The notes: generated by a model not told the origin, from the letters alone. Positions 6,126 through 40,628 are shown, numbered from the stretch's first letter. The stretch is 64,000 nucleotides of DNA from an uncultured Candidatus Saccharibacteria bacterium (GCA_964482335.1 CAYZXA010000002.1:586-64585); one strand, 5' to 3'. Numbers and translations are program-made.

Positions 6126-6127
6126 GT

Positions 6128-9698: not shown

Positions 9699-9828
9699 AG
9701 AATTTACTAAAAATTAATCTTATCTATCAACGACCTTGATTGCTTTATAATAGCACATTTAGATTAATAATAAAAAGGGCCTATCTCTTTTGAGTAGACC
9801 CCTTTAACTGACTTTTAAGTTTTGCTTG

Positions 9829-19891: not shown

Positions 19892-19963
19892 GCCCTTGTG
19901 GTGAAACGGATATCATGTCTGCCTTCGAAGCAGAGGTTCTAGGTTCGAATCCTAGCGAGGGCA
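19892..19963 (+). tRNA. tRNA-Arg (anticodon TCG)
   Basis: Hand-folded: acceptor GCCCTTG/CGAGGGC, anticodon stem TCTGC/GCAGA with loop CTTCGAA, T-loop GGTTCGAATCC. No CCA is encoded. Confidence 0.85.
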
Positions 19964-19974
19964 CAAAGTTTGCC

Positions 19975-20401: not shown

Positions 20402-20474
20402 GCCCCTATAACTCAATTGGCAGAGTAGTTGCCTCTTAAGCAATTTGTTCCAGGTTCGAGTCCTGGTGGGGGCA
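20402..20474 (+). tRNA. tRNA-Lys (anticodon CTT)
   Basis: Hand-folded: acceptor GCCCCTA/TGGGGGC, anticodon loop CTCTTAA, T-loop GGTTCGAGTCC. No CCA is encoded. Confidence 0.9.
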
Positions 20475-20485
20475 CTGATAAAAAT

Positions 20486-25030: not shown

Positions 25031-26119
25031 TTATCTAAAAGGATTTATGGCGCCGCTCATTCCGAAGTGAACATGACAGCCGGTAGAAGAGCCTGCTCCC
25101 GGCGTTCCTGGTGCTCCGCCCATTAAAGCTATTATCTGACCTTGGGAAACATAATCTCCGGGATTTACCAAACTTGCTTGGATGTGTCCATACATTGTTA
25201 CTACGCCATTGGGATGCAAGATGGTTAAATGATTACCAGCTCCCCCAAAAGCCCATATGGACCTGGAACTTGTTAGTTTGACTTTAAGAACAGTGCCGGC
25301 AGCTGCTGCGAGAATCGGTTCGCCGCATTTGCCGTGTGAGAAATCAATGGCATTGTACCAGTGAAGACCCTGGGTAATGCGGCAAGGCGGAGAAATCGGG
25401 CAGATGAAATAGCTTGAAGCTATAGGAACGTAAGTTGGAGCATAAATTGCTGGAGGCGGCATAACACCGTCTGGCACAATTAAAACGTCACCGATGTAAA
25501 TATCATCCTCTGTCATTAAATCGTTAAAGGCAACAATTTTATCTACTTCTGTCTTGTAAGTCTTGGCAACCTGGCCTAAAGTATCACCACTTTTAACATG
25601 GTGGACAATTCCTGTGGTTGGCAAAACAATCAATTTTTGGCCAATCTGAATCACGGTATATTTGTTTAAGTCGTTGGCCCAGAGAATAGTGTCTAAAGAA
25701 ACATCAAACTTTTCAGCAATTGACCCAAGATTATCTCCTGGCTGCACAATATATTCAACAACTTCTTTCTGATCCCATTCGTAGTTAAAATTGCCCACTA
25801 AAGCTCCTAGAACCTGGGGAGTGACCATAATGGGAGGGGAAACAGCAGCTAAGCTGTTTTGCTGGATTAAACTTAAATCAGGCGATTCTATAATGCTGGC
25901 TCCTGGCACAACAAAAGGGCTCTCACTATCTTGAGAACCCTGGTTAAAGATAAAAATACTACTATTGCTAACAAAAGAAGGGGTAGTAAAAGAAACAACC
26001 CCAAATAAAACAACAGAAACTATGGTCAAATAAAGGAAAGGGTCTTTTTTAGAACCCTTGTATCTTTTCAGCCAAACTAAAATTTTGGAAGCATATCTTC
26101 TAAATAGCAATGTATCCAT
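25031..26119 (-). CDS. LysM-domain M23 family metallopeptidase
   Basis: 362 aa with an N-terminal TM helix and two LysM repeats (YIVQPGDNLGSIAEKF.., HHVKSGDTLGQVAKTY..). M23 motifs are HLTILHPNG..MYGH and GCHVHF. Confidence 0.85.
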   Translation of the reverse strand: MDTLLFRRYASKILVWLKRYKGSKKDPFLYLTIVSVVLFGVVSFTTPSFVSNSSIFIFNQGSQDSESPFVVPGASIIESPDLSLIQQNSLAAVSPPIMVTPQVLGALVGNFNYEWDQKEVVEYIVQPGDNLGSIAEKFDVSLDTILWANDLNKYTVIQIGQKLIVLPTTGIVHHVKSGDTLGQVAKTYKTEVDKIVAFNDLMTEDDIYIGDVLIVPDGVMPPPAIYAPTYVPIASSYFICPISPPCRITQGLHWYNAIDFSHGKCGEPILAAAAGTVLKVKLTSSRSIWAFGGAGNHLTILHPNGVVTMYGHIQASLVNPGDYVSQGQIIALMGGAPGTPGAGSSTGCHVHFGMSGAINPFR

Positions 26120-26208: not shown

Positions 26209-26991
26209 ATGCTCAAAAAGCAAGGCGTCCGTCCACTAAAAAGGCTAGGCCAAAACTTTCTAATCAATAAAGGGGTGCTCAAAATAATCATTGAAGCAGC
26301 CAGTCTCAGTCCAGAAGACACGGTTCTGGAAATTGGCCCAGGAACCGGTGTTTTAACTTTGGCCTTAGTTGAAAGAGTAAAAAAGGTTATTGCTGTTGAG
26401 AAAGACATAAGGATGATTAAGGTTTTAAAAGAAGCTTTGAAAAATTTTAAAAATGTAGAAATTATCCAAGGAGATATTCTAAAGGTGAACTTAAGAGTCA
26501 AAAACTATAAGGTTGTCGGTAACCTGCCTTTTTATTTAACTGCGCCTGTAATTCGCAAATTCCTTGAAATGAGAGAGGCTAAACCTCAATCAATGGTGCT
26601 AATAGTACAAAAAGAAGTGGCTCAGAGAATTTGTTCTAAACCCCCTCGCATGAATCTTTTAGCAGTCTCGGTTCAGTTTTATGCAGAATCTAAAATCATT
26701 TCTTATGTTTCTAAAAAATCTTTCTGGCCGCAGCCAGAAGTTGACGCAGCTGTTATTAAAATAACTCCTACTGCTCCTCCTATAGGGAAGAGAGATTTGT
26801 TCTTCAAGATCGTTAAAGCTGGATTTTCTCAACCCAGAAAACAATTAATCAATAATTTATCAAAAGGTCTAAAAATGAACAAAGAAGAGGTAAAAGCCTG
26901 GCTCAAAAAAAACAAAATCTCTCACATTCAAAGAGCAGAAACCCTAAAAATTGAAGATTGGTTAAAATTAACTAAAAGTTATAGTCCTTGA
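26209..26991 (+). CDS. rsmA: 16S rRNA (adenine1518/1519-N6)-dimethyltransferase
   Basis: 260 aa with the LGQNFL and EIGPGTGVLT motifs. Confidence 0.9.
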   Translation: MLKKQGVRPLKRLGQNFLINKGVLKIIIEAASLSPEDTVLEIGPGTGVLTLALVERVKKVIAVEKDIRMIKVLKEALKNFKNVEIIQGDILKVNLRVKNYKVVGNLPFYLTAPVIRKFLEMREAKPQSMVLIVQKEVAQRICSKPPRMNLLAVSVQFYAESKIISYVSKKSFWPQPEVDAAVIKITPTAPPIGKRDLFFKIVKAGFSQPRKQLINNLSKGLKMNKEEVKAWLKKNKISHIQRAETLKIEDWLKLTKSYSP

Positions 26992-27078: not shown

Positions 27079-27894
27079 ATGAAGAAGTGCTTGATATTCT
27101 TATTGGCTTTAATAGTCATCTTGAATGGAACACTGATTGGTTGCTCCTGCGAAAATGGTGACGGAGAACCAAGTAGTGAAACAATGGGAACAATTGATGT
27201 GCCAGAAGGAGGAAAAATCAAAGTTGTCTCTAAGCTGCCGGCAGAATTAAAGCTTACTTTGGAAGAACTAGGAATAGATCAATACTTCCAGCTGGTTTTT
27301 GCTGGAAAAGTGAAAAATATATCTAGTTACAGTGTAAGTTTTGACAAAATCTCATTTATTCTGGACGGAGAAGAAATAGCCTACCGGCGTACTTGGTTTG
27401 ATGACCCTTCAAGGTCTGACTATAAACCTTTAGGGCCTGGTGAGGAATTGGAGTTCTATTTTGGTAAAATACTAGGCGTAGAGAAAACACAGAAAGCGAA
27501 ACTCCTGGAAGTGAAAGCTGTAAACTTCCAAATAATTGGAGGCTCAACAACGCCAACAAAACCAACACCATCGGAGCCAACAGAGCCAGAGATGACGACA
27601 GAAGAAGTGCTAATAAAGTGGTTTGATTTAATGAAAAAGGAGAAATTCTCAGAGGCCGAAAAGCTTCTTGCTCCAGATTATAAAAAGCATCTTGATTCTT
27701 ACGGCGGTCTAAAGAAAATGTGGCAAGAAAATCCCATGACAGAAATAAAAATATTGGGAACACAGTTTGAAACCAAAACAGCTATTGTTTATGTTATAAT
27801 TACGTTCGAAGACGATACTGTCTGGGACAATGATGCCAGGTTTCGCTTTGAAAAAATAGATAACGAATGGAAAATAGATGAAATCTCGCAATAG
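27079..27894 (+). CDS. Putative lipoprotein
   Basis: 271 aa with a signal peptide carrying the lipobox LIGC. I recognised no other family. Confidence 0.7.
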   Translation: MKKCLIFLLALIVILNGTLIGCSCENGDGEPSSETMGTIDVPEGGKIKVVSKLPAELKLTLEELGIDQYFQLVFAGKVKNISSYSVSFDKISFILDGEEIAYRRTWFDDPSRSDYKPLGPGEELEFYFGKILGVEKTQKAKLLEVKAVNFQIIGGSTTPTKPTPSEPTEPEMTTEEVLIKWFDLMKKEKFSEAEKLLAPDYKKHLDSYGGLKKMWQENPMTEIKILGTQFETKTAIVYVIITFEDDTVWDNDARFRFEKIDNEWKIDEISQ

Positions 27895-27964: not shown

Positions 27965-29032
27965 TTACTTAATTGGCAATACTCTTAATGAAGAAGCTGC
28001 GTCATTTCCAATGTAGTTATCTGCTGCTAGGTTCGGGTCATTTCGAAGAAAAACTTCGCAGTGATCTGTAAAGTTAGCACCCTCAAAAAGAACAGCCATG
28101 TAACCATCAACAACCTTGATTGAAGAAATTCTATCGTCAAGATCACAACGCCCCCACCCTCCTTCACAATTAATGAATCTATACTCTTTAAAATCTTTAT
28201 ATTCACCCACCGAGAACACTTGATATTGTTTTTCTTTGTCTCGCTCGTTGTATTCTTTATGCTTGTAAACAGTTGCTCCCTTTTTTCCATTTCCCTCTCT
28301 TTGTCTAAATATGGTTATAGAAGAAGCACCATCACCGCCTATTTCAGACCGACGAATGGTATGATTAAGCTGAGAATCACTTAAAACGACTTGACAATCG
28401 TCTTTGTAATCTTTGTCTTCGTGGAAAACTGCTCCGTACCTATCAGTTACCTCTCGGCATCGTGGTTCATCACAATCTTCCGGTTTACATTCTGCCTTAC
28501 ATTTTGTAGGATTTTTAAATTTTACATATAATGGCTTTTGGTTGTTTAACGCTCCTAAATCAGGGGTTGACTTAGTAAAAACCTGACAATCTTCCCTGGC
28601 CGCATCCTTACATAAATAAACTCCTGGTGTATCTTGAGCAACAAGGCCTGATTCTTTCAGTTGAGGACTAATAATAATTAATTGAGGATTAATTGTAGTT
28701 AATAGTAGCCAAGAACCTAAAATAACTACTAAACCAATCAGGCCAGAAAAAATCTGATTATTGGCATCGCCCATGGCTGTCGGATTGCCAGCTGAAGTTA
28801 AATAACGGACTCCGCCATAAACTATCACAACAAAAGCAATTAAACCAGCAATTCCAATACCAAAATTGAAAATATATTTAACATAGGTTGGCAAAAGAGG
28901 TGTTTCGGTAATAGCTGGCTCTTCGCCAATTTGCGGCAAAGGAACTTCTAATTCTCGAGCTAAAGCAAAATTAACCAAGATAAAAATGGCTAGAGCTATA
29001 AGAATAAATATTAAAAGTTTACCAAATCGCAT
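27965..29032 (-). CDS. VirB2-like pilin module fused to a Cys-containing beta/gamma-crystallin-like C-terminal domain
   Basis: 355 aa. The N-terminal ~125 aa (LPTYVKYIFNFGIGIAGLIAFVVIVYGGVRYLTSAGNP..LIGLVVILGSWLLLTTINPQL) parallel 29069..31090. The C-terminus (..ISSIKVVDGYMAVLFEGANFTDHCEVF..NDAASSLRVLP) looks like a Greek-key crystallin motif. Confidence 0.75.
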   Translation of the reverse strand: MRFGKLLIFILIALAIFILVNFALARELEVPLPQIGEEPAITETPLLPTYVKYIFNFGIGIAGLIAFVVIVYGGVRYLTSAGNPTAMGDANNQIFSGLIGLVVILGSWLLLTTINPQLIIISPQLKESGLVAQDTPGVYLCKDAAREDCQVFTKSTPDLGALNNQKPLYVKFKNPTKCKAECKPEDCDEPRCREVTDRYGAVFHEDKDYKDDCQVVLSDSQLNHTIRRSEIGGDGASSITIFRQREGNGKKGATVYKHKEYNERDKEKQYQVFSVGEYKDFKEYRFINCEGGWGRCDLDDRISSIKVVDGYMAVLFEGANFTDHCEVFLRNDPNLAADNYIGNDAASSLRVLPIK

Positions 29033-29068
29033 AGTTATAGATTGTTTAATTATACCACAACTCTTACT

Positions 29069-31090
29069 TTAAAACATCTCAGTTTGGCAGCATAAAAAGT
29101 TATCAAAGATATCTGGTTCTGCTTGGCTGGCGCCATAACATTCGGTTATCTCTTTTCCTTCTTCATTATAAAATGTGACTCCCCAGCCCTTATATTGTTT
29201 TAGCGTAGAGCAATCATAAAGCTCTCTCCAGAGAACTTTTTCTGTGCCTAGTTTTCTCTGAGTTTCCTCTGAATTGTAGCAAGGCCCTAATTGATTTTGG
29301 GCAACGTTTAAATTCTTGAAAATCTCTGATATTTTGAGTTCATCTCCAATTTCTTTTTCTTCAATGAGATTCTTAAGATTTGAGAAAGACATTTCTATTT
29401 CACTGTAATTGTTTTGAATTTGGCTGACAGCAATACCAATCGCCTCAGGATTGGGATGACCCAAACAAACACATGAACAGGAACTACAATACTCGTAAGA
29501 ACAGCTTGAATCACAACAGCCATATTCGCAATCTTCTTCGGCTGCATAAATAATGAGTGGTTTTAACATCCAAAACTCCCACCAACGCCCTCCGGGAGGA
29601 AACTGTTCCCAATCTTCCTCCTCTTCTTCGGGCGGCGGACAACACTCAATACACTGCCAATCACAACAGTCATTGGTTGTCACCATATCAGAAACGCAAT
29701 TATTACAACCACATTCTTCAGCTGATTCAACCAATCTTTCTATAGCTTCTATTTGTGCTAAGGCATTATTATTAATATTATCGAGTTCGACCAACATTTT
29801 TTTAGCTAACTCTTCGGCATTATCAACGGTTTCGCCAATCGCGATCTCGTCTCCGCAAATCATCTCTTCTGTGCTATCGGAGACCTCTAGCTCTACTTGC
29901 TCAAAGTCTTCTGTCCAGCTTATTTCTGGCAGACTTGGCTGAAATATTTCAGCACAATAAAAAGTAGCTAAATAGTAGGAGTTTTCCGAAGAAACATAAT
30001 CAAAAGGATATTCTGGCTCTACGCCTTTAATCTTTTGCTCCTTTTCTAGTGCTTCTCTATATTGCCAAAAATTATTATAACCTAATAAGATTTGATTATT
30101 CCCCTTAGTGTTTGATGAAAGGGAACATTCTTTTACCAGGCCTTCAGCTGATTCTAGATCTTCGTAAACTTGTCTAAAACCAATGACTTTTTCTTCTTCT
30201 TTTGCTTCTTCTGGAGATCCGTTAATCTCAACATCTAATTGTTCCTGCCAATATTTAGAACCCTTGCCGTCTTCTGCTTCTCCTATGGCCATTCTAAGCT
30301 CTTCTTTTTTTCTATTTATGGCTCGCCTTCCTGCTCCAGTACAAGGATCATTTTCTCCATAGGGTTCACCAACACACTGACAATTAGAAACACAATTTTG
30401 ATTTCCATAACAGCTGCCTATATCACAATCTCCATGATCACATAGAGAACATGAACAGGCATCAGTTAATGCTTCCAATTCTTCTGATAGTGTTTTTACT
30501 TCTTCAGATTTGTTTTTTAGTTTTTCTGAGACATCTTTAATCTTTTCCGTTCTCTCTTCGGAAAACAATTCTTCAACTAATCCACCAATTGAAATTTCAG
30601 TATAATACAGGATTTCTTTTTCTTTTGGTTCAGGCCGGATAAGCGGCTCTTCTGGCAAAATCACTCTTTCTGGAATACCTAAAAAAACCAACTGCGGGTT
30701 GATAGTGGTTAAAATTAAATAGGAACCGACCAAAACTGCCAAACCTAAAAAAGCAGCAAAGATCTGATCTCTAGCATCTCCCATCTTGGTTGGATTGCCG
30801 GCTGAAGTTAAATAGCGGAAACCGCCATAAACTAAAACAATAAAAACAATTAAACCAGCAATTCCTAAAGAAAAATTAAAAATATATTTTACATAAGTTG
30901 GTAGGCCAATACTGGTGTCTTCTGGTCTTACCCCGCCAACCTCAGGATATCCAACCTCTAGCTCTCTCTGGACAAACCCCCCTAAATTTTGTGAAACAAA
31001 ACTTGGACGAGCAAAGGTAAAATTGCTGAAAATCAGCATCAAAAAAACAAACAGAACGCAAACTAAAATAATCTTTCTCAACCATCTCAT
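29069..31090 (-). CDS. VirB2-like pilin module fused to a long coiled-coil / Cys-cluster extracellular region
   Basis: 673 aa. It has the same N-terminal two-TM pilin-like module, followed by dense Cys clusters (CSCSLCDHGDCDIGSCYGNQNCVSNCQC; CCDWQCIECC; CCDSSCSYEYCSSCSCVC). Confidence 0.75.
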   Translation of the reverse strand: MRWLRKIILVCVLFVFLMLIFSNFTFARPSFVSQNLGGFVQRELEVGYPEVGGVRPEDTSIGLPTYVKYIFNFSLGIAGLIVFIVLVYGGFRYLTSAGNPTKMGDARDQIFAAFLGLAVLVGSYLILTTINPQLVFLGIPERVILPEEPLIRPEPKEKEILYYTEISIGGLVEELFSEERTEKIKDVSEKLKNKSEEVKTLSEELEALTDACSCSLCDHGDCDIGSCYGNQNCVSNCQCVGEPYGENDPCTGAGRRAINRKKEELRMAIGEAEDGKGSKYWQEQLDVEINGSPEEAKEEEKVIGFRQVYEDLESAEGLVKECSLSSNTKGNNQILLGYNNFWQYREALEKEQKIKGVEPEYPFDYVSSENSYYLATFYCAEIFQPSLPEISWTEDFEQVELEVSDSTEEMICGDEIAIGETVDNAEELAKKMLVELDNINNNALAQIEAIERLVESAEECGCNNCVSDMVTTNDCCDWQCIECCPPPEEEEEDWEQFPPGGRWWEFWMLKPLIIYAAEEDCEYGCCDSSCSYEYCSSCSCVCLGHPNPEAIGIAVSQIQNNYSEIEMSFSNLKNLIEEKEIGDELKISEIFKNLNVAQNQLGPCYNSEETQRKLGTEKVLWRELYDCSTLKQYKGWGVTFYNEEGKEITECYGASQAEPDIFDNFLCCQTEMF

Positions 31091-31206
31091 TACTTAAATA
31101 ATAGCAAATTACACCCCTTCTTACCAAACTTTACCTGGCTTGTTTTTCTTTTGTTTCTTATTTGGTATACTATAGTAAGAACAATAATAAAGTTAGTTTG
31201 ATTTTA

Positions 31207-33012
31207 ATGAGAGTCAAAAGTACAATTATAATTAGCTTTTTGTCAGTTTTTGGTTTGGCTTTGCCTACTTTTTGTCTAGCTCAAGGAGGTGTAATCTTTG
31301 GTGCATTTTTAAGTGTCTTTGCTGTAATATACGGCCTAATTTTCAACATCTTGGGAACAATTACTGGTGCTTTCTTGGGCGCAGCGGTTGCGCTTTTTAA
31401 TTGGGTTTCTTCTGACACTTTTATTTCTCTCTCTTATACTAATGCCGGTCTTTCTCTAGGAGACCCGCACTTTAACCCCTTCATTGAAATTGGCTGGACT
31501 TTAACCAGGGATTTAACTAATATCTTTTTTGTCTTAGCTTTGGTGGTAATTGGTCTAGCTACTGCTCTAAGAATTAATGACTATCAAGCGAAAAAAGCCT
31601 TACCAGTTTTAATTATTATTGCTCTACTAATTAATTTTACCCCAGTAATCTTAGGTTTGATTGTTGATGCGGCAAACATTGTTATGAATTTCTTTGCCCA
31701 GGGTGGATTTTCTGGTGGCAATAATTTTGCTAATTATGCTACGAGACAGTGGGGCAACATGTCAACTTTATTTGGTTTGGGAGAGGCCTGGGATCCATTA
31801 GCTAAAGTTGGAGCTGCTGTAGGAAGTGGTTTTTTGGTTTTCTTTAACCTTATTGCTGCTCTTATTTATTTACTCTTTGCTCTCTTATTTGTTGTTCGCT
31901 ACGTTGCTATCTGGACTTTGACAATTTTATCTCCTTTTGCTTTTGCTTGTTATATTTTCCCAGCAACTAGAAAGATTTTTAGTATGTGGTGGCAGCAATT
32001 TATTCAATGGTCACTCGTTGGAGCAATCGCTGCTTTCTTTTTATATTTGGGAGATCATTTTATTAGAGCAGCAACTGATCCTAATAACCCAATTATGGCT
32101 GGTTCAATGTCAGAAATTGCTGATGCTCAAGGATTAGCTCCAATAATAAACCAAACTCTGCCTTATTTTATTGCTCTTGTCTTTTTATTTATCGGCCTGT
32201 TTGCTTCTTTAACCTTTGCCCCTAAGGGCGCTGACGCCATTATTAAAGGTGGCCAAAAGGGGATAAATAAGGCCAGCACAATAGCTGGTAAAAAATACTG
32301 GGCCGGAGCAAAGGGAGTTGCACGGATTCCAAAAGGGGTGGCGAGTGGCGCAAGTACATATGCAAAGACTCGATCTTTTAAAGCAGCGGCAGGAGCAACA
32401 TGGAAGGGCGTAGCGCATCCAAGTCCAGGAATATTGCAAAGAACGTGGAAAAGAGCCAAAGAACACATGCCAGCCGATGTAAAAGCCGCAGGTAGGGGCC
32501 TTCAAAAGGCTTCGAGAGAAGTGTGGGGAGCTGCTATTGGAAAAAAACCAAAAACGTGGAACTGCACAAAATGTGGTACTACTGATATACCAATTAGCCA
32601 AGCAATATGTCCTAATTGTGGTTCTAAACGTGGCACAAAAGAAACACCACCTTCGTCGCCTTCGCCGCCCTCACTACCTTCATCTCCTTTAAGACCATCG
32701 GGGACACCACCGCCTCCTGGTTATGTTGAAGGAGGCCCTGGTGGGATGGTATTACCATCAAGTCCAAGTCGAATAAGACCATCGACTCCGCCACGCCTAT
32801 CTCTTGCTGAATTAGAAAGGTCTTATGACGATACTAGAATTAAACTAGAAGGCGCTAGAAACGAACTTAAGGCTGGCATAAGAGGATTAAGAAGGGGTAG
32901 TCCCGAATATAAAGCAGTAAGAAAACAAAATGAAACCATAGTTAAACAACTCCAAAAACGACTTAAAAACTTAAATACTGATCTTAAAAAAGCAAGAAAA
33001 CTAGAATCTTAA
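31207..33012 (+). CDS. VirB6/TrbL-like polytopic membrane protein with C-terminal zinc ribbon and Pro-rich tail
   Basis: I trimmed the start to ATG 31207 (the track start is TTG 31162). It has ~8 TM helices, then CTKCG..(x)..CPNCG, then PPSSPSPPSLPSSPLRPSGTPPPPG. Confidence 0.6.
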   Translation: MRVKSTIIISFLSVFGLALPTFCLAQGGVIFGAFLSVFAVIYGLIFNILGTITGAFLGAAVALFNWVSSDTFISLSYTNAGLSLGDPHFNPFIEIGWTLTRDLTNIFFVLALVVIGLATALRINDYQAKKALPVLIIIALLINFTPVILGLIVDAANIVMNFFAQGGFSGGNNFANYATRQWGNMSTLFGLGEAWDPLAKVGAAVGSGFLVFFNLIAALIYLLFALLFVVRYVAIWTLTILSPFAFACYIFPATRKIFSMWWQQFIQWSLVGAIAAFFLYLGDHFIRAATDPNNPIMAGSMSEIADAQGLAPIINQTLPYFIALVFLFIGLFASLTFAPKGADAIIKGGQKGINKASTIAGKKYWAGAKGVARIPKGVASGASTYAKTRSFKAAAGATWKGVAHPSPGILQRTWKRAKEHMPADVKAAGRGLQKASREVWGAAIGKKPKTWNCTKCGTTDIPISQAICPNCGSKRGTKETPPSSPSPPSLPSSPLRPSGTPPPPGYVEGGPGGMVLPSSPSRIRPSTPPRLSLAELERSYDDTRIKLEGARNELKAGIRGLRRGSPEYKAVRKQNETIVKQLQKRLKNLNTDLKKARKLES

Positions 33013-33021
33013 AAAAGAAAA

Positions 33022-33053
33022 AAGGCAAGATCATTAATTAACCTTGCCTTTTC
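33022..33053 (+). terminator. Intrinsic terminator
   Basis: AAGGCAAG-13 nt-CTTGCCTT is followed by TT(C). Confidence 0.55.
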
Positions 33054-33086
33054 AGAAATAAACCGAGGAGCGAAGCAAATAAAGAG

Positions 33087-33314
33087 TTAGAAGTCGGGAG
33101 CTTCATGACTATCAGGGAGAACGCTCTTGTTCTCAGTATACCAGTCTTTAACATTCTTGCTCAGCGTCTCAACCTCTTCGGTCACTTCCTTCAGTCTTTC
33201 CTGCCCATTGCTCACTTTCTTCAAGAGATAAGCCCTTTCTCTCCTCTGACGGATAAGCTTCTGAAGGTTCCGGCCTTCTTTCTTAATTGCGCTATTGCTT
33301 GATAAGCCAAACAT
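33087..33314 (-). CDS. Hypothetical small coiled-coil protein
   Basis: I moved the start to ATG 33314 (MFGLSS..), which has the RBS GGGAGGT 5 nt upstream. 75 aa. Confidence 0.55.
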   Translation of the reverse strand: MFGLSSNSAIKKEGRNLQKLIRQRRERAYLLKKVSNGQERLKEVTEEVETLSKNVKDWYTENKSVLPDSHEAPDF

Positions 33315-33456
33315 TGTTACCTCCCACTTTTTTAAATTTTTGTTCATCCGATGTTTCAGCTTTCTCTATCTGCTTTCTGGCCAAGACTATATCTAACCCT
33401 TCATGTTCTCAGTCCTCCTTTTTACAATATTTTATATTATATACCCATTTTAAAAA

Positions 33457-33885
33457 ATGTCAAGACCTATGTCTAAAAAACGCATAAAAGCAGAGTTTTC
33501 TAAAAAAATACAAGAAATAATCCTCTCTGATAAAACAGCGGAGGACATCGGGAATATTTGCGGAAAGTGTGACATTGCTAATGAAGAGAAAATTGAAAAT
33601 ATTGCCTATCAGATAGGTATAGTCTTATTGGGTAGGTTGTCGCCCGAAAAATTAGCTAAAACACTAGAGAAAAAGGTGAAATTGAAATCAAAAATAGCTA
33701 AAAAAGTCTCTGAAGAAGTAAACAAGCTCATTTTTTCTCCGATAAAAGATGACTTAGCTAAACTTTATGAAAAAGAGGTCTTTGTAAAACCAGTAGTTAA
33801 ACCTGGTAATTCTGTACTTCCTCCACTAAAAGAAGAACCTAAGAGATCTCCAAGAAAAGACACTTATCGTGAACCAATAGAATAA
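33457..33885 (+). CDS. Hypothetical protein, first gene of the plus-strand T4SS-like operon
   Basis: 142 aa with no recognisable motif. It sits 2 nt upstream of the next gene. Confidence 0.6.
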   Translation: MSRPMSKKRIKAEFSKKIQEIILSDKTAEDIGNICGKCDIANEEKIENIAYQIGIVLLGRLSPEKLAKTLEKKVKLKSKIAKKVSEEVNKLIFSPIKDDLAKLYEKEVFVKPVVKPGNSVLPPLKEEPKRSPRKDTYREPIE

Positions 33886-33887
33886 TT

Positions 33888-34295
33888 ATGGATCAATTTA
33901 CTGTCCCTAAGTTTATCGAGCATGAGGCAAAAATAGTTGGGCCTTTTACCTTTAAGCAGTTTGTTTATATTGGGATTGCTGGAGCAATCTGTTTTGTTTT
34001 TTATTTCACGCTTCCTTTCTTTATTTTTATTTTAGCCAGTATCGTCGTAATGTTGGGTGGTTTTGCTTTGGCTTTTTTGAAAAGCGGGGGTAGGTCTCTA
34101 CCGATTCTCTTTAAAAACTTCCTCGGTTTTTCCATGTCTCCTAAAATCTACCTTTGGAAAAAGAAAGGAGGACTGCCTCCAAAAATCGCTGAAAAGTCTT
34201 CAACTGTTTCTAAAGAAGCCGAAGAGACCCCAACGCCCAAAGTTGTTGGTAAAAGCCGTTTAAAAAACCTCTCAACCGAAATTGAAACTAAATAA
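33888..34295 (+). CDS. PrgI-family (VirB3-like) membrane protein
   Basis: 135 aa. The N-terminus FTVPKFIEHEAKIVGPFTFKQFVYIGIAG.. followed by two TM helices is the PrgI pattern. Confidence 0.6.
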   Translation: MDQFTVPKFIEHEAKIVGPFTFKQFVYIGIAGAICFVFYFTLPFFIFILASIVVMLGGFALAFLKSGGRSLPILFKNFLGFSMSPKIYLWKKKGGLPPKIAEKSSTVSKEAEETPTPKVVGKSRLKNLSTEIETK

Positions 34296-34297
34296 CC

Positions 34298-34957
34298 ATG
34301 TCATTTACCTCTACTCAACAATTTTTAGAGATTAGCCAGATAAGAGAAGGAGTAATTATTCTAAAAAATAAGGCCATGAGAGCTGTTATGATGGTCTCTT
34401 CCTTAAATTTTGCTTTGAAATCCGATGAAGAACAGTCATCTATTATTTATCAGTTTCAAAGCTTCTTAAATTCTTTGGATTTCACATGCCAGATTATTAT
34501 CCAGTCTAGAAAACTCAATATCACCGGCTATTTAGACCAAATAAAAGAACTTGAGAACAAACAAACTAATGAACTCCTTAAGACGCAAACGGCTGAATAT
34601 CGACAATTCATTGAAGATATAATTGCTGGTGCCCCTCCTGCGGGAAAATACGGAGAAATTATGTCAAAGTCTTTTTACGTAATTATCCCTTTTACTCTCT
34701 TGGAAACTAAGAGAGCGTCTATTTTATCATTATTGAAGGCTCCTAAGATTTCTGCCCTGACCGAAGAAGAGTTCCAAAGATGTAAACAGCAATTGTGGCA
34801 AAGAATGGAATTTGTTGCCTTGGGATTAAGAAGGTGCGGATTACAAGCCGTACCCTTGACCACGCCAGAACTTATTGAACTTTTTTGGGGATTGCACCAT
34901 CCCAAACAAGCTGAAATCGGCTATTTTCCCGAGGTTCCACCAGAACTATCAAAATAA
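34298..34957 (+). CDS. T4SS-associated protein of unknown function
   Basis: 219 aa, 2-nt spacing to both neighbours. The N-terminal segment (ISQIREGVIILKNKAMRAVMMVSSLNFALKSDEEQ) resembles the extreme N-terminus of Gram-positive VirB4-type ATPases. This call is weak. Confidence 0.6.
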   Translation: MSFTSTQQFLEISQIREGVIILKNKAMRAVMMVSSLNFALKSDEEQSSIIYQFQSFLNSLDFTCQIIIQSRKLNITGYLDQIKELENKQTNELLKTQTAEYRQFIEDIIAGAPPAGKYGEIMSKSFYVIIPFTLLETKRASILSLLKAPKISALTEEEFQRCKQQLWQRMEFVALGLRRCGLQAVPLTTPELIELFWGLHHPKQAEIGYFPEVPPELSK

Positions 34958-34959
34958 TC

Positions 34960-36750
34960 ATGAAACTTAATCTTTTCAAAAAAAAGAAAAAAGAGCTTAT
35001 CCCAGAGAAAATTTTTGAAACTGAAGAAATGAGAGCAGTAGATATTATTGCTCCCTCTTCTATTAAGATAAAACCCTCTCATTTGAAATTGGGAGAAAGA
35101 CTAACTCAGTCTTATTTTATTTTCTCTTATCCTCGCTATCTAACCACTAGCTGGTTTTCTCCTATTATCAATCTTGATATTCCTATGGATATTTCCTTTT
35201 TTATCCATCCGATTGAAGCGGGGTTAATGTTAAAACAATTAAGAAAAAGGGTAACTGAAATCCAAGCGGAAATCATGGAAAGAGAGAGTAAGGGATTAAT
35301 TAGAGACCCGGCTTTAGAAACTGCCTACCGAGACATAGAAGAATTAAGAGATAAATTGCAAACAGCTCAAGAAAGAATGTTTAAATTGGGCCTTTATTTA
35401 ACAGTTTATGCTGATACGGAAAAGGAATTAAGAGATATTGAAACTACATTGAGGTCTATTCTTGAATCAAAGTTAATTTATATTAAACCAGCTCTTTATC
35501 AGCAAAAAGAAGGTTTTATCGCCACCTCTCCTTATTGCCTTGATAAGCTAGGGGTCCATGCCTCAATGAATACTGGCACCTTGTCCAGCGTCTTCCCTTT
35601 TGTTTCTTTTGACTTAAGCTCTAACGAAGGAATTTTGTATGGCATTAACCAACATAACAATTCCCTGGTTTTATTTGATAGATTTTCCTTAGAAAATGCT
35701 AACATGTGTATTTTTGCTCAATCAGGAGCTGGCAAAAGTTATGCTGTCAAGTTAGAGATCCTGCGTTCTCTTATGCTAGGGACAGATGTAATTATTGTTG
35801 ATCCTGAAAATGAGTATGAATCTTTATCAGATGCCGTTGGCGGTTCATACTTCAAAATATCTTTGGGCAGTCCTTCTCATGTTAATCCTTTTGATTTGCC
35901 AACACCCAGAGAAGACGAAAAGCCAGAAGACATTTTAAGGGGCAACATTATTAATTTAGTCGGGCTAATGAGGTTGATGCTGGGAGGATTAACCCCAGAG
36001 GAAGACGCTGTCATGGACAGAGCTCTAAGCGAAACCTACGCTGCCAAAGATATAACTCCTCAGTCTGACTTTTCAAAAATTACTCCTCCTTTAATGTCAG
36101 ATCTAGAAGCTGTTTTGGGCGGAATGGAAGGAGCTGAATCTCTATTAAAAAGAGTAAGGAAGTTTACTAAAGGAACTTACGCTAATTTCTTCAACCAGCA
36201 GTCCAACGTCAAAATGGATAACAATCTTATCACCTTTGGCATTAGAGACATGGAAGAAGGATTAAGGCCTATAGCTATGTATGTTATCATGAGATATATT
36301 TGGAATAAGATTCGCTCTGAGCTGAAAAAAAGGATTTTTGTGGTAGATGAAGCCTGGTGGTTGATGAAGTCAGAAGATGGTGCTTCTTTCCTTTTTGGTA
36401 TTACTAAAAGGGCCAGAAAATACTGGTTAGGAGTAACTACTATCACTCAAGATGTTGGTGACTTTATGAAATCAGAATATGGAAAACCAATTATTACCAA
36501 TTCTGCTTTGCAGTTTTTAATGAAACAAAGTCCGGCTACGGCCGATGTTTTGAAAAAAACATTTAATCTGACTGATTGGGAAAAAGAACTATTGTTAGGA
36601 ACTGCGGTAGGGGAAGGCATCTTCTTTGCTGGGCAGAAACACGTAGCTATTAAAGTTGTAGCTTCGCCTGCTGAGCACCAGCTTGTTACCACTGCTCCAG
36701 AAGAAGTAAAAAGAATAAAAGAAGCTAAAAAGAAATTAACTAAAGAATAA
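34960..36750 (+). CDS. VirB4/TrbE-like T4SS ATPase
   Basis: 596 aa with Walker A SGAGKSY and Walker B FVVDEAW, following a VirB4-type N-terminal domain. Confidence 0.8.
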   Translation: MKLNLFKKKKKELIPEKIFETEEMRAVDIIAPSSIKIKPSHLKLGERLTQSYFIFSYPRYLTTSWFSPIINLDIPMDISFFIHPIEAGLMLKQLRKRVTEIQAEIMERESKGLIRDPALETAYRDIEELRDKLQTAQERMFKLGLYLTVYADTEKELRDIETTLRSILESKLIYIKPALYQQKEGFIATSPYCLDKLGVHASMNTGTLSSVFPFVSFDLSSNEGILYGINQHNNSLVLFDRFSLENANMCIFAQSGAGKSYAVKLEILRSLMLGTDVIIVDPENEYESLSDAVGGSYFKISLGSPSHVNPFDLPTPREDEKPEDILRGNIINLVGLMRLMLGGLTPEEDAVMDRALSETYAAKDITPQSDFSKITPPLMSDLEAVLGGMEGAESLLKRVRKFTKGTYANFFNQQSNVKMDNNLITFGIRDMEEGLRPIAMYVIMRYIWNKIRSELKKRIFVVDEAWWLMKSEDGASFLFGITKRARKYWLGVTTITQDVGDFMKSEYGKPIITNSALQFLMKQSPATADVLKKTFNLTDWEKELLLGTAVGEGIFFAGQKHVAIKVVASPAEHQLVTTAPEEVKRIKEAKKKLTKE

Positions 36751-36751
36751 A

Positions 36752-37123
36752 ATGGCAGAAGAAATTCCAACTACTACAAAAACACCTCCAGTAAAACCTG
36801 CTACTCCTAAACTTATCCCAAAGCCTGCCGTTAAAAAGGGGAAAACTCTGGGAAAATGGTTCCAAAAAATTCCCAGGGAAATCCTTTTCTCACCAGGGGG
36901 AATAGTTTTAATTGTTTTTGCTCTTATTATGGAAATTCTTGATTGGATTCCTATACCGATAATAGATAATTTATGGGAATTACCATTAGAGCTAATTTTT
37001 ATTGTATTTTTGGCAATAATTGTCAAACTTCCTTTACAGAGCATGCTTATTCCGTTCATCATCGAACGCATTCCTATGGTAAATGATATTGTTCCAACTT
37101 GGTTCATCCGAATGTTTCTTTAG
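36752..37123 (+). CDS. Small membrane protein, last gene of the T4SS-like operon
   Basis: 123 aa with a Pro/Lys-rich N-terminus followed by 2-3 TM helices. Confidence 0.6.
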   Translation: MAEEIPTTTKTPPVKPATPKLIPKPAVKKGKTLGKWFQKIPREILFSPGGIVLIVFALIMEILDWIPIPIIDNLWELPLELIFIVFLAIIVKLPLQSMLIPFIIERIPMVNDIVPTWFIRMFL

Positions 37124-37144: not shown

Positions 37145-37168
37145 AAAACTACCCCTATGGGTAGTTTT
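37145..37168. terminator. Bidirectional intrinsic terminator
   Basis: AAAACTACCC-ctat-GGGTAGTTTT lies between convergent genes. Confidence 0.7.
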
Positions 37169-37184: not shown

Positions 37185-37649
37185 TTAGGGATGGGCTCGG
37201 ATGACTATACAGCGTTCGGGCTCCTGGCCAGTACTTTCAGTAACAACATCTGCCCTTGAAGCCAGTTCCATGTGAACGATTCTTCTCTCATATGCTGGCA
37301 TTGAAGGAAGATATTTTTCTTTTTTATTTAAAGCTACTTCATCGGCCATTGTTTTGGCCATTTCTTTTAAATATTCTGTTTTTTTCTTTTTGTAATCGTT
37401 GACGTCAAGGTTAACATAAAAAAGACCTTCAGCGTTTATTTGTCTTTTTAGGACAATCTTCAAGAGATGCTGAATTTCGGCTAAGGTCTGGCCTCTTTCG
37501 CCAATCAAAATCTGAGGTTCTTCCATTGTCAAATTAATAGGAATGGTTGAGTCTTCAAAGCGGGCTACCTCAACCTCTATCTGTAAGCCAGTCATTTCAA
37601 AAAACTCCTGGGCTGCTTTTTTAATTTTCTCTTGGTTGATCTGAATCAT
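37185..37649 (-). CDS. jag: Jag/KhpB-like KH + R3H RNA-binding protein
   Basis: 154 aa with R3H-type ERRIVHMEL.. at the C-terminus. It sits in the conserved position downstream of yidC. Confidence 0.75.
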   Translation of the reverse strand: MIQINQEKIKKAAQEFFEMTGLQIEVEVARFEDSTIPINLTMEEPQILIGERGQTLAEIQHLLKIVLKRQINAEGLFYVNLDVNDYKKKKTEYLKEMAKTMADEVALNKKEKYLPSMPAYERRIVHMELASRADVVTESTGQEPERCIVIRAHP

Positions 37650-38355
37650 GCTTTTTAAGCATAATATATTGTTGACCGATTGTAAAGAGGGTGGTGGTCA
37701 GCCAATAAAGGGCGATGGCTGCGGGCAAGCGCCAGAGGATAAAAACAGTAAAAATAGGGAAAAAGTAAAGCATCTGTTTTTGCATCATCTGAGAAAAGCC
37801 AGGCGAACTTTTCTGGCTTGTTTTTTGTTTGGAAGAGACCATCTTTGTTTGAATGAATTGGAAAATACCAGTAATAATAGCCAAAGCTATGGAAGCTTCA
37901 GCTAAGTTAACAATGCCTAAAAACATCATATCAACCTGGCCAGGGTGGGGGACAAAACTATAAAGGAATCCCATTTGTTCTTCACCAAAGCCTCGCCAGA
38001 AAACCCGGAAAAGAGCAATTAAGATAGGTAGCTGAACAAGCAAGGGCAAGCAGCCAGAAAGAGGATTAATCTTCTCTTTCTTATAAAGCTCCATCATGGC
38101 CTTGCTTTGCTGTTCTTTGTCGTTCTTGAACTTGTCCTTGATCTCTTGCATTTTTGGCTGAAGCCCAGATAATGCTTTTTGAGAACGGATGCCTTGGGCG
38201 CCCAAAGGATAAAGGACAAACTTAATCAAAACTGTTAAAACAATAACAGCAATGCCAAAGTCATGGCCTGGCAAATATATATACAACAAAATCAAGGCAT
38301 TGAACAATGGCTGATATAGTACGACGTTAAAAGTGTTTATAAAAAAATCGAACAT
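37621..38355 (-). CDS. yidC: Membrane protein insertase YidC (short form)
   Basis: 244 aa with the conserved core ..MELYKKEKINPLSGCLPLLVQLPILIALF.. Confidence 0.9.
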   Translation of the reverse strand: MFDFFINTFNVVLYQPLFNALILLYIYLPGHDFGIAVIVLTVLIKFVLYPLGAQGIRSQKALSGLQPKMQEIKDKFKNDKEQQSKAMMELYKKEKINPLSGCLPLLVQLPILIALFRVFWRGFGEEQMGFLYSFVPHPGQVDMMFLGIVNLAEASIALAIITGIFQFIQTKMVSSKQKTSQKSSPGFSQMMQKQMLYFFPIFTVFILWRLPAAIALYWLTTTLFTIGQQYIMLKKHDSDQPREN

Positions 38356-38359
38356 ATTT

Positions 38360-38569
38360 TTAAGGTAAGTCTACTCCACCCGAACACCAAGGGTGGCACT
38401 TAAACAGTCTTTTAATCCCTTTAAAACAGCCTTGGAATACTCCATCTTTTTTAATGGCTAAAAGAGTGTATTCTGAACAAGAAGGGTAAAAACGGCAGTG
38501 TTGGCCCAAATACGGCGAAATAAAAATCTGATAAAATCTGATTGGTTTGAGAATAAAATATCTAATCAT
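38360..38569 (-). CDS. yidD: Membrane protein insertion efficiency factor YidD
   Basis: 69 aa with ..CRFYPSCSEY.. . Confidence 0.9.
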   Translation of the reverse strand: MIRYFILKPIRFYQIFISPYLGQHCRFYPSCSEYTLLAIKKDGVFQGCFKGIKRLFKCHPWCSGGVDLP

Positions 38570-38904
38570 AGCAATTTAGCTTTTTTAAAAAGTTTATTGA
38601 CGATTGCTTCTATTTCCCAAAACTCTTTAGTTTCTAATCCTGGTACAGCTGTTAAAACAATATCATAGCCTTTTTTTATTTTAGACAATCTGCTTTTAAC
38701 TAATTCTCTCAGTCTTCTTTTAATCTTATTTCTTAAGACAGCCTTTTTGGAAACCTTTAAGCTGACAACAAAAGCAAACCTGCTTGCGTTTAAGTTGTTT
38801 TTAACGAACTTAAGAAATAAAAAAGCCTCTTTCACCCCTTTCCCTCGTTTAAAAACCCACTCAATATCTTTTTGTTTTTTAAGACGGTTTACCTTAGACA
38901 GCAT
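38566..38904 (-). CDS. rnpA: RNase P protein component
   Basis: The start is probably ATG 38904, 1 nt after the rpmH stop (the track start is TTG 38916). The protein is basic and sits in the conserved rpmH-rnpA context. Confidence 0.85.
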   Translation of the reverse strand: MLSKVNRLKKQKDIEWVFKRGKGVKEAFLFLKFVKNNLNASRFAFVVSLKVSKKAVLRNKIKRRLRELVKSRLSKIKKGYDIVLTAVPGLETKEFWEIEAIVNKLFKKAKLL

Positions 38905-38905
38905 G

Positions 38906-39040
38906 TTAAACAGCAAGTCGCCATCTTTCTTTTTTTCTTCTACGAGCCAATACTTTCCGACCTCCCTTTTTTCTTTTTCTAATTCTAAACCCGTGGGTCT
39001 TTTTTCTTTTCCTTTTTTTGGGTTGGTAGGTAACGCTCAT
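38906..39040 (-). CDS. rpmH: 50S ribosomal protein L34
   Basis: Too short for the ORF track. My hand translation gives [44 protein letters not shown]. Confidence 0.9.
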
Positions 39041-39118
39041 GTCAATATATTAACACTTTGTCCCCAACTTATCAACATAAGGTTTGCTTTTGTGATAATT
39101 TTGCTTTTATTTGACATG

Positions 39119-39127
39119 TGATATAAT
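39119..39127 (+). promoter_or_regulatory. Extended -10 promoter element TGaTATAAT upstream of dnaA
   Basis: Read directly from the sequence, ~54 nt upstream of ATG 39181. Confidence 0.45.
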
Positions 39128-39180
39128 AGCTCCAGGATTATAAGAACCTCGCCAAGGGCGAGAACCTTGAAGTTAAAACT

Positions 39181-40539
39181 ATGAATAAGGATGAGTTATG
39201 GCAAGCCTTGCTTGCCCAAATCCAGTTTAATATTTCCAAGGCCAACTTTGCCACCTGGTTTAAGAACACCGGAGTCTTCTCTAAAAAAGAAGGAGAAATA
39301 ATTATTTCTGTTCCTAATAATTTCTCCAAAGAATGGCTAGAAAACAAATACAATAAACTGATCTTTAAGATTCTCCGTAATTTAGACGAGGAAATCAAAG
39401 AGGTAAAGTATTCTGTGAGCAAACCAGGATTAAAAACTAAAGGATCTTCGGCTTCTTTCGTTGGTGCTTTGGTAGAGACGCCCCAGCTTGAATTTCAGGA
39501 ATTTAAGATTAACAAAGAAACTAATTTAAATCCCCGCTATACTTTTGAAAACTTTATTGTTGGTCCATTCAACGAACTTCCCCAGGCAGCTGCTTGGGCA
39601 ATTTCTCAAAACCCTGGTTCTGTTTACAATCCTTTATTTATTTACGGCGGTGTGGGGCTGGGCAAAACCCATCTTCTCCAGGCAATCGGCAACGAGGTTA
39701 TCAAAAAGGTTCCTCAAAAAAGAATAAAATATGTCTCTTCTGAGAAATTCACCTCTGGCATAATCAGTTCGATTAGAAATCATGACGTTGAGAAATTCAA
39801 GTCTCTATATAAGGATATTGATGTCTTAATGATTGACGATATCCAGTTTTTGTCGGGCAAAGAGAAAACTCAAGAAGAGTTTTTCCATGTCTTTAATGAT
39901 CTATATGAAAAGAATAAGCAAATAGTTCTTTCTTCTGACCGTCCGCCAAAAGCAATCTCAGCATTAGAAGAGAGGCTGAGATCTCGTTTTGAGGGCGGCA
40001 TGATAGCTGATATCGGCCTGCCTGACCTTGAAACAAGGCTAGCTATTTTAAAGGCTAAGTCCCAAGAAAAAAAGGTAAATTTCTCTAACGAGATATTAGA
40101 ATACATTGCTTCCAATATCCAGATAAACATTAGAGAGCTGGAAGGAGCTTTAAACAGGTTGGCAGCCTATCAAAAATTAAACAATAAACCTCCTAATTTA
40201 GAGGTGGCCAAAACCCTTTTAAAGAACATTATCTTCTCCCCCAAGAAAGTGGCTAATCCTGACAAAATAATAAAGGCCGTGGCTTTTTTCTACGACTTAA
40301 AGGAAAAAGATATTCTGGCTACTTCCAGAAAAAAAGAGATTGTTAAACCCCGTCAGATAGCCATGTATTTTTTGAGACAAGAGCTAAAAAGTTCTTTCCC
40401 TTTTATCGGTAGAAAGTTTGGCGGCAAAGACCACACTACGGCCATTCACGCCTATAATAAGATTGTGAAAGAGTTGGGGACAAGCGATAGTTTGACAGAG
40501 GAAATCAGCTTAATAAAAGAACAAATTTATCGCCTCTAG
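39181..40539 (+). CDS. dnaA: Chromosomal replication initiator DnaA
   Basis: 452 aa with Walker A GGVGLGKTHL and the C-terminal DNA-binding signature ..DHTTAIHAYNKI.. Confidence 0.95.
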   Translation: MNKDELWQALLAQIQFNISKANFATWFKNTGVFSKKEGEIIISVPNNFSKEWLENKYNKLIFKILRNLDEEIKEVKYSVSKPGLKTKGSSASFVGALVETPQLEFQEFKINKETNLNPRYTFENFIVGPFNELPQAAAWAISQNPGSVYNPLFIYGGVGLGKTHLLQAIGNEVIKKVPQKRIKYVSSEKFTSGIISSIRNHDVEKFKSLYKDIDVLMIDDIQFLSGKEKTQEEFFHVFNDLYEKNKQIVLSSDRPPKAISALEERLRSRFEGGMIADIGLPDLETRLAILKAKSQEKKVNFSNEILEYIASNIQINIRELEGALNRLAAYQKLNNKPPNLEVAKTLLKNIIFSPKKVANPDKIIKAVAFFYDLKEKDILATSRKKEIVKPRQIAMYFLRQELKSSFPFIGRKFGGKDHTTAIHAYNKIVKELGTSDSLTEEISLIKEQIYRL

Positions 40540-40628
40540 TTTTAAACACTTAATATTAGACATTCGTCAACAGTCTTTCCCCAAAGAAATTAATATAAAA
40601 AATTATTATTAATCACACCATAACAACT

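Follow-up and report, generated by a model that had tools for sequence, protein, structure and literature searches.

The locus described here is a putative type IV secretion system (T4SS) gene cluster at positions 27965-37123 of a 64-kb window, i.e., the entire stretch of 64,000 nucleotides (nt) analysed (GCA_964482335.1, CAYZXA010000002.1:586-64585, from an uncultured Candidatus Saccharibacteria bacterium). A first-pass annotation made from the sequence alone had reported nine open reading frames (ORFs) in two divergent units, with two VirB2-like pilin fusion genes on the minus strand and, on the plus strand, a VirB6/TrbL-like gene followed, beyond a small minus-strand ORF, by a five-gene operon with a PrgI/VirB3-like and a VirB4-like member. 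All nine ORFs were reproduced in the ORF listing of the window with their coordinates, strands, 1-2 nt spacers, and Walker motifs, and profile searches against Pfam and NCBIfam supported the identities of the T4SS core. The five genes of the plus operon (33457-37123) are separated by 2, 2, 2, and 1 nt (33885/33888, 34295/34298, 34957/34960, and 36750/36752, respectively). The locus is bordered by ksgA (26209-26991) on one side and by jag-yidC-yidD-rnpA-dnaA-dnaN (37185-41768), the replication-origin region, on the other. Gene order and orientation are the same in four out of four independent metagenome assemblies and the core recurs in 80 species-level genomes; thus the conserved layout is far beyond chance.

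The fourth gene of the operon (34960-36750, +) encodes a VirB4 ATPase of 596 amino acids (aa) composed of the middle and C-terminal ATPase domains, as judged from NCBIfam, PDB, and the Walker motifs. Walker A (SGAGKSY) is located at aa 255-261 (nt 35722-35742) and Walker B (FVVDEAW) at aa 460-466 (nt 36337-36357). The NCBIfam model of the CD1110-family VirB4 was matched with 359.6 bits (cut-off 325) over model positions 169-734, and the closest solved structure is 4AG5, a Gram-positive-type VirB4 of Thermoanaerobacter (E 5e-38), with TrwK of R388 behind (9e-9). The CedB model yielded 54.8 bits at a cut-off of 700, far less than CD1110 and other conjugative VirB4 models, which places the protein outside the CedB/ComB4 family. 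VirB4 is 85% identical to its counterparts in Candidatus Nealsonbacteria metagenome-assembled genomes and 58-85% identical across the best 80 species-level genomes, all of which belong to Parcubacteria/Paceibacteria-type Patescibacteria. The VirB4 loci of these 80 genomes, together with 10-kb flanks, formed the set used for synteny.

Directly upstream of virB4 lie a gene for a PrgI/VirB3-like protein with two transmembrane (TM) segments (33888-34295, +; PF12666 with 37 bits, gathering threshold (GA) 27) and an ORF of 219 aa (34298-34957, +). The latter had been left without an identity in the first-pass annotation; based on NCBIfam, PF26593, and a conserved split, it is assigned here as TrsD-like. 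Its NCBIfam matches are to VirB4_plasma, the Mycoplasma VirB4 (positions 103-233, 1.2e-9), to positions 4-104 of the CD1110 model, and weakly to TrsD (0.005), and its precomputed annotation is PF26593 (TraC-like). A sequence search of the PDB with TrsD gave no match. The TrsD family comprises 1,780 representative clusters, nearly all of them stand-alone proteins of about 200-250 aa. In case of a natural fusion protein of 797 aa (P0356), residues 7-212 are 41% identical to the 219-aa protein and residues 232-796 are 55% identical to VirB4; it is collinear with TrsD plus VirB4 and aligns end to end with the VirB4_CagE model. By these sequence comparisons, the 219-aa protein is recognisable as the detached N-terminal domain of VirB4. 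P0356, found among relatives, could represent a genuine re-fusion or a read-through in a single assembly.

Synteny was conserved across genomes of the candidate phyla radiation, with PrgI, TrsD, and VirB4 present in 76, 79, and 80 of the 80 loci, respectively, and prgI adjoining trsD-virB4 in all 76. Since trsD and virB4 are separate ORFs in each of the 79 loci having both, and identical in the four assemblies, a frameshift or assembly artefact behind the 219-aa/596-aa split was rejected. The same data bear on the idea that the locus is a functionless, decaying remnant of an ancient integrated element. Many canonical components are indeed lacking and VirB4 is distributed over two ORFs, as such a remnant might be expected to look; the split is nevertheless kept as two intact ORFs wherever both genes occur, the core genes are intact and coupled by 1-2 nt, the Walker motifs are preserved, VirB4 retains its high identity across 80 species, and homologues are essential in S. 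epibionticum (PMC10633639). The conservation data thus effectively refute decay, which we regard as having next to no probability.

The VirB6/TrbL-like gene (31162-33012, +) codes for an extended polytopic membrane protein of 616 aa, or of 601 aa if the ATG at 31207 chosen by the gene caller is the start. As a single sequence it matches Pfam TrbL weakly (E 0.007). At the family level, 11 out of 43 members match TrbL (best 1.7e-7), and the sole PDB match of the family profile is TrwI/VirB6 of R388 (7O3V_F, E 7.7e-7), so that the identity proposed in the first-pass annotation, weak for the single sequence, is solid for the family. The TM domain is kept in 49 loci, unlike the C-terminal tail (approximately aa 396-616), which is species-specific and hydrophilic and contains a zinc ribbon (Pfam matches at approximately aa 462-490), a Pro-rich stretch, and a coiled coil. 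VirB6 proteins of the relatives range from 519 to 1,446 aa and likewise carry a variable hydrophilic tail, i.e., they are of the "extended" type.

Both genes of the minus-strand unit encode pilin fusions, as previously suggested. Pilin fusion 1 (27965-29032, -; 355 aa) consists of a signal peptide, a VirB2-like hairpin, the junction TTINPQL, and two beta-gamma-crystallin domains, assigned from PF18895, an AlphaFold2 (AF2) model, and Foldseek. PF18895 (T4SS_pilin) was matched with 32.0 bits, above the GA of 26.6. The AF2 model (mean predicted local distance difference test score, pLDDT, 77) comprises a signal/TM helix, helices 49-79 and 84-114, and the beta domains. In a Foldseek search the model retrieved gamma-crystallins (probability 1.0, target TM-score about 0.64), namely two-domain gamma-crystallins and microbial single domains, and the ectodomain is accordingly modelled as a double Greek-key beta-gamma-crystallin fold; the Pfam crystallin score of the single sequence is 17.5 bits, below the GA of 25. 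More than 200 homologues of this protein exist, several of which contain PF00030, PF08964, or PF03995, and the TTINPQL junction is nearly invariant. The Ca2+-binding motif of microbial crystallins is N/D-N/D-x-x-S/T-S; DDRISS (299) and NDAASS (343) occur in the 355-aa protein, and the family conserves the last Ser only.

Pilin fusion 2 (29069-31090, -; 673 aa) combines the pilin module with an unrelated ectodomain of 530 aa that contains 33 Cys and coiled-coil segments; the assignment derives from PF18895 (24.6 bits, just under the GA) and from paralogy, the two fusions sharing 50% identity across the N-terminal 121-137 residues and no relationship beyond. No Pfam domain and no PDB sequence match were found for the 530-aa ectodomain, and the relatives of the 673-aa protein in the 80 loci are weak homologues only. 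In contrast to the small mature pilins of the VirB2/TrbC type, both cluster pilins thus bear large ectodomains.

A third, stand-alone VirB2/TrbC-like pilin gene is situated near 20 kb (19975-20397, +), between genes for tRNA-Arg (19892-19964) and tRNA-Lys (20402-20475). It matches PF18895 with 40.7 bits (GA 26.6) and TrbC with 27.0 bits. Due to the overlap of the tRNA-Arg gene with the 5' end of the listed ORF (19915-20397, 160 aa), translation probably begins at M21 (19975) or M31 (20005). In relatives, this pilin corresponds to the C-terminal pilin domain of proteins of 740-850 aa encoded between ksgA and virB6. An iterated pilin-domain hidden Markov model identified 98 pilin-domain ORFs in 64 virB4 loci, with a median length of 435 aa; 79 have at least 200 aa, 38 at least 500 aa, and the longest reaches 1,394 aa. 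Extensions are C-terminal in 46 cases, N-terminal in 11, and on both sides in 20, and the remaining 21 ORFs are short classical pilins. Mean pairwise identity amounts to 59% in the pilin core versus 33% in the ectodomains. In the relevant papers on the patescibacterial T4SS no mention of pilin fusions with large ectodomains was found, and these fusions with their fast-evolving surface domains are the sole possibly new detail of the locus.

The first gene of the operon (33457-33885, +), called hypothetical in the first-pass annotation, encodes a soluble protein of 142 aa with a helical bundle, a disordered linker, and the C-terminal sequence D-x-Y-R-E-P-I-E. In the AF2 model (pLDDT 72), the bundle spans residues 8-109 and is followed by the linker. 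In about 45-50 loci the gene immediately precedes prgI, and the C-terminal peptide DxYREPIE is invariant in the family. All 88 homologues stem from the Parcubacteria group and none of them has a Pfam domain; neither profile nor Foldseek searches of the PDB with the 142-aa protein gave a significant match. Its sequence family marks it as a conserved, Parcubacteria-specific component. In one of the four same-organism assemblies (L081, 3517-3932), this gene was called as two ORFs of 85 and 48 aa, which points to either a frameshift in that strain or a mistake in the assembly.

The last operon gene (36752-37123, +) encodes a membrane protein of 123 aa with two hydrophobic segments, predicted to be TM segments. 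Homologues with 40-67% identity occur in seven of the 80 loci, always directly downstream of virB4, and no Pfam or NCBIfam match was obtained. Judging from these homologues, it is a real gene with a patchy distribution. The three operon ORFs that had been listed merely as a hypothetical, a 219-aa protein, and a small membrane protein are real, although the conserved nature of the first and the TrsD identity of the second had gone unrecognised. The label "minimal" likewise applies in part: a core plus pilins was found and no outer parts, yet the absence of the latter is expected for a monoderm system of the MPF-FATA type, and TrsD, the conserved 142-aa protein, the patchy 123-aa membrane protein, and the third pilin exceed the parts previously listed.

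VirB6 was found in 49 loci, compared to 48 loci with at least 9 kb of upstream sequence, and jag/yidC in 62, compared to 61 with at least 5 kb of downstream sequence. VirB6 thus occurs in practically every locus whose upstream flank is long enough. Across related loci, pilin genes and jag-yidC-rnpA-dnaA-dnaN adjoin the core. The identity of VirB4 to that of the window correlates with the corresponding identities of DnaA, DnaN, and YidC (Spearman 0.87, 0.89, and 0.82, respectively). Due to this co-divergence the locus is regarded as vertically inherited and chromosomal rather than as a mobile element, and the fixed synteny beside dnaA together with the lack of an integrase in the window argues against an integrated conjugative element.

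The search for conjugation functions points in the same direction. Neither a VirD4-type coupling protein (T4CP) nor a relaxase was detected in the 64-kb window by ORF inspection, Pfam, and a Walker-A scan, in agreement with what had been noted from the sequence, and neither VirB11 nor an integrase or element borders were found therein. The genuine P-loop ORFs of the window are confined to VirB4, DnaA, UvrB, and a PilB/GspE-type ATPase, and the composition of the locus matches its flanks. The hallmarks of a conjugative T4SS or of an integrative and conjugative element (ICE), i.e., relaxase, T4CP, and mobile-element features, are consequently missing within 64 kb. A conjugative or mobilising T4SS of the ordinary kind, with its coupling protein, relaxase, and oriT at another place in the genome, would still be in line with the best curated match of VirB4, the conjugative family CD1110, and with the finding that t4cp genes are often unlinked from virB4 in Patescibacteria (PMC12102498), given that only 64 kb are visible. 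Against this stand the results from the window, the position beside dnaA in 80 species with co-divergence of the neighbouring genes, the count of only 109 relaxases in 3,035 Patescibacteria genomes (PMC12102498), and the situation in S. epibionticum, where the T4CP homologue is non-essential and the T4SS essential (PMC12102498, PMC10633639). We consider such a conjugative element very improbable.

A far better correspondence exists to the Patescibacteria-clade T4SS. VirB4 was reported for 2,417 out of 3,035 Patescibacteria genomes, forming a clade within MPF-FATA (Quinonero-Coronel et al. 2025, PMC12102498), and the same survey found TrsD, PrgI/VirB3, VirB6, and VirB2-like pilins, often in arrays, near patescibacterial virB4, relaxases almost absent, T4CP homologues rarely linked to virB4, and the Paceibacteria locus near dnaA, dnaN, rnpA, ksgA, and rpmH. 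The present locus shows an MPF-FATA-type VirB4 by scores and identity, an adjacent TrsD, PrgI and VirB6, VirB2-like paralogues, an origin-proximal position, and no relaxase or T4CP in 64 kb. The component set is the same as in these systems (PMC12102498; S. epibionticum SEML1_0006-0019, PMC10633639), including multi-copy pilins, the lack of a nearby relaxase/T4CP, and the origin-proximal context, and nothing fundamental differs. Differences to the published descriptions are the inverted pilin unit, an orphan antisense gene, and the ectodomain fusions, and the 142-aa protein is unnamed there. The locus is thus no new kind of system but a typical copy of an already described one, which lacks a relaxase and is retained beside the replication origin by nearly all ultra-small bacteria of the candidate phyla radiation. 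Taken together, we hold it to be probable that it is a standard chromosomal Patescibacteria-clade T4SS in a Candidatus Nealsonbacteria (Paceibacteria) genome, derived from MPF-FATA, and that it serves as a host-interface machine and not as a conjugation system.

With the MPF-FATA plasmid systems (Trs of pGO1/pSK41, Tra of pIP501, and Prg of pCF10) the locus shares TrsD plus TrsE (VirB4), PrgI/TrsC (VirB3), and PrgH (VirB6-like), and, in common with them, it lacks outer-membrane components. The plasmid systems are mobile, have T4CP, relaxase, oriT, VirB8-like and VirB1-like proteins, and surface adhesins, and have no VirB2 pilin, whereas in the chromosomal, vertically inherited locus pilins are present and T4CP, relaxase, VirB8, and VirB1 were not found. 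The T4SS of Mycoplasma ICEs (Mbov_0395, pilin-like; Mbov_0397, VirB4) is likewise a minimal system of a wall-less or monoderm organism with a pilin-like protein; the pilin domain and both VirB4 pieces matched the Mycoplasma models of NCBIfam with 33, 36, and 271 bits, respectively, all below the cut-offs (40, 590). Unlike the locus described here, it is carried by a mobile ICE that also encodes a DDE transposase and a coupling protein of the TraG type. The reduced VirB2/VirB3/VirB4/VirB6-like set without coupling protein or relaxase is shared with ComB of H. pylori and archaeal Ced. ComB additionally needs VirB7-10 homologues, and the locus is a member of neither the ComB nor the Ced family.

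By homology, VirB4 in its two pieces sits on the membrane via VirB3/PrgI and works with the channel protein VirB6. The VirB4 complex, docked through VirB3 to VirB6, would extract signal-peptide-processed VirB2-family proteins from the membrane, and these pilins would be assembled into a surface filament or contact structure with the helical hairpins as its core. The variable ectodomains (the crystallin pair and the Cys-rich domain) would be exposed on the outside and attach to the host envelope. As neither a coupling protein nor a relaxase was found, DNA export is unlikely, and we infer that the structure anchors to the host cell and taps it. A host-contact filament or channel is, on sequence grounds, the most likely function. 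The 142-aa protein may be a lineage-specific, cytoplasmic accessory that docks on the ATPase complex, which is speculative. The claim of the first-pass annotation that the locus is a contact-dependent transfer or attachment device rather than a conjugation system fits this picture: its negative part is backed by surveys, transposon sequencing (Tn-seq), and vertical inheritance next to dnaA, while its positive part corresponds to the published consensus and is still inferential.

Several reports bear on the function. Tn-seq experiments showed that S. epibionticum requires the T4SS and the pilin array in order to grow as an epibiont (Wang et al. 2023, PMC10633639), and, as stated in a passage of a T4SS review citing Wang et al. 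2023, comEC is dispensable in this organism (PMC12857230). Effector delivery or nucleotide uptake were mentioned as roles in a 2024 perspective (PMC11665869), and the 2025 T4SS review speculated on the pilus as a conduit (PMC12857230). For a cultured member of the Minisyncoccota, a 2026 preprint described tubular structures from parasite to host, possibly T4SS pili, and acquisition of host RNA (bioRxiv 10.64898/2026.06.21.733656). In this very large bacterial radiation, few machines other than the patescibacterial T4SS are known to be indispensable for epibiotic life, and the present locus is a clean, compact Paceibacteria example with a defined operon (promoters, terminators, and tight coupling) and a clearly split VirB4.

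The pilin data also fit a system devoted to adhesion or surface display only, in which the only task of VirB4, VirB3, and VirB6 is the insertion or polymerisation of adhesins anchored by a pilin domain, without any translocation through the machine. Most pilin genes encode large fusions whose ectodomains vary and evolve faster than the core, the beta-gamma-crystallin pair has a fold characteristic of structural or binding proteins outside the cell, and the window contains no T4CP that could recruit substrates. However, VirB6, a channel component in characterised systems, is conserved, type IV pili and other adhesins already attach Patescibacteria (PMC10633639), and the tubular connections together with shrinkage of the host cytoplasm suggest a transfer of material (bioRxiv 10.64898/2026.06.21.733656). 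Pure adhesion therefore seems unlikely to us.

Transfer could also proceed outward, with a protein-export T4SS injecting effectors into the host in the manner of the T4CP-less systems Ptl, Brucella VirB, or Streptococcus suis 89K. T4SSs without T4CP have precedent (PMC12857230; PMC12102498), Saccharibacteria have been suggested to deliver effectors (PMC11665869; PMC10633639), and the 142-aa protein with its invariant C-terminal peptide could, speculatively, be a substrate or a chaperone. On the other hand, none of the conserved genes of the locus is an effector candidate, and the T4CP-less exporters of diderms use a periplasmic route for which no obvious monoderm equivalent exists. In our ranking, effector export, like pure adhesion, is improbable and stands behind the uptake of host macromolecules. 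It is uptake that we tentatively favour as the direction, since a set of VirB2, VirB3, VirB4, and VirB6 only most resembles ComB and Ced.

If the pilins of Paceibacteria are modular and polymerise, it is tempting to speculate on a decorated pilus with swappable host-recognition domains, in which the 142-aa protein could replace the coupling protein as an adaptor. We put this forward as a rather doubtful possibility. If true, a decorated VirB2 pilus would be an architecture so far undescribed and a candidate determinant of host range. Flagellin-type filaments, by analogy only and without homology, also combine a conserved helical module with a fast-evolving surface domain (59% versus 33% identity here). 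Experimental handles are offered by the pilin ectodomains, which are candidate host-recognition modules, and by the 142-aa protein, a candidate for an adaptor or a substrate.

Several points weigh against the host-interface machine outlined above. The sole basis of the import idea is the analogy in gene content with ComB and Ced. Substrate and direction are putative for any Paceibacteria T4SS, and the field itself terms the role of the T4SS "completely unknown" (PMC11665869). In many Patescibacteria, T4CP homologues are located far from virB4 (PMC12102498), and the window covers 64 kb only. Components resembling VirB8 or VirB1 were not identified here. A domain of 25-60 kDa on each subunit may not fit sterically into a helical pilus of the VirB2 type, and the pilin fusions could instead serve as minor subunits, as tip subunits, or simply as surface proteins anchored in the membrane.

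As for the arrangement of the units, the pilin unit is divergent from virB6 here, whereas in most relatives the pilin genes are located on the virB4 strand, either downstream of virB4 or upstream of virB6. The pilin unit and virB6 are separated by a short intergenic region (31091-31161, or up to 31206 if the gene-caller ATG is the virB6 start) that presumably harbours divergent promoters, and promoter-like matches occur on both strands (31075-31102, +; 31127-31098, -). A hairpin with a 15-bp stem and T-run (33019-33053, -), situated between the ends of virB6 and the small antisense gene, is a predicted intrinsic terminator, and a second hairpin (37145-37168) is predicted to act bidirectionally, closing the plus operon and the convergent jag.

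The small antisense ORF (33087-33347, -; 86 aa), probably 33087-33314 with 75 aa, encodes a charged helical protein and has a predicted promoter, Shine-Dalgarno sequence, and terminator of its own. The promoter is a perfect TTGACA-16-TATAAT (33463->33436; 12 out of 12 positions of the sigma-70 consensus), and GGGAGG as Shine-Dalgarno sequence precedes the ATG at 33314. No homologue of this ORF was found in the 80 related loci; some relatives have antisense ORFs at the same position, none of which is related to it and most of which are unrelated among themselves. As an orphan, it was rejected as a part of the T4SS, and from its signals it looks like a real lineage-specific gene. Its promoter coincides in part with the beginning of the 142-aa gene on the opposite strand, and transcription from it could interfere with or couple to initiation of the operon.

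Three further genes of the window were considered as T4SS components. An ORF for a protein with two LysM domains and an M23 peptidoglycan endopeptidase domain (25031-26119, -; Pfam LysM and Peptidase_M23) has its best NCBIfam matches among cell-division types (DipM/ActS) and is located next to ksgA in ten of the 80 loci; it is a possible cell-wall-opening helper analogous to VirB1, and its assignment to the T4SS is unproven. A lipoprotein of 271 aa (27079-27894, +) adjoins the pilin unit and has no Pfam match, no PDB match, and no homologue in the 80 loci; its C-terminal 100 aa resemble the NTF2/SnoaL-like (VirB8) fold by eye only. The T2SSE-family ATPase at 47450-48691 (-) was rejected as a missed VirB11, since the GspE and PilB models scored 432 and 424 bits, respectively, versus 59 bits for VirB11. 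This PilB/GspE-type protein of 413 aa is devoid of a long N-terminal domain, and no genes for a pilus or a type II secretion system lie beside it; its neighbours encode a lamin-tail-domain protein (46597-47295) and a DHH phosphoesterase.

A polynucleotide phosphorylase (PNPase) gene (21254-23356, +) is situated about 4.6 kb from the pilin genes. With 10-kb flanks, only two loci extended far enough for its linkage to the T4SS to be seen. In the 2026 preprint, PNPase and VirB4 were described as ancient acquisitions of the phylum for feeding on host RNA.

At its beginning, the window contains a block of genes for secreted or surface proteins (1-10719, -). A radical-SAM enzyme gene (1483-2883) beside a gene for a 124-aa (S)GDW-repeat peptide (3252-3626) has the look of a locus for a ribosomally synthesised and post-translationally modified peptide, and an archaeal-type A24 prepilin-like peptidase is encoded at 3617-4684. 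The block further includes five paralogous genes for small secreted proteins (4699-5121, 5508-6053, 8707-9132, 9288-9698, and 9829-10719), which share 27-39% identity and have no Pfam match, and a gene for a Cys-rich repeat protein of 823 aa (6201-8672), of which a partial second copy with 72% identity is present at the window edge (3-677).

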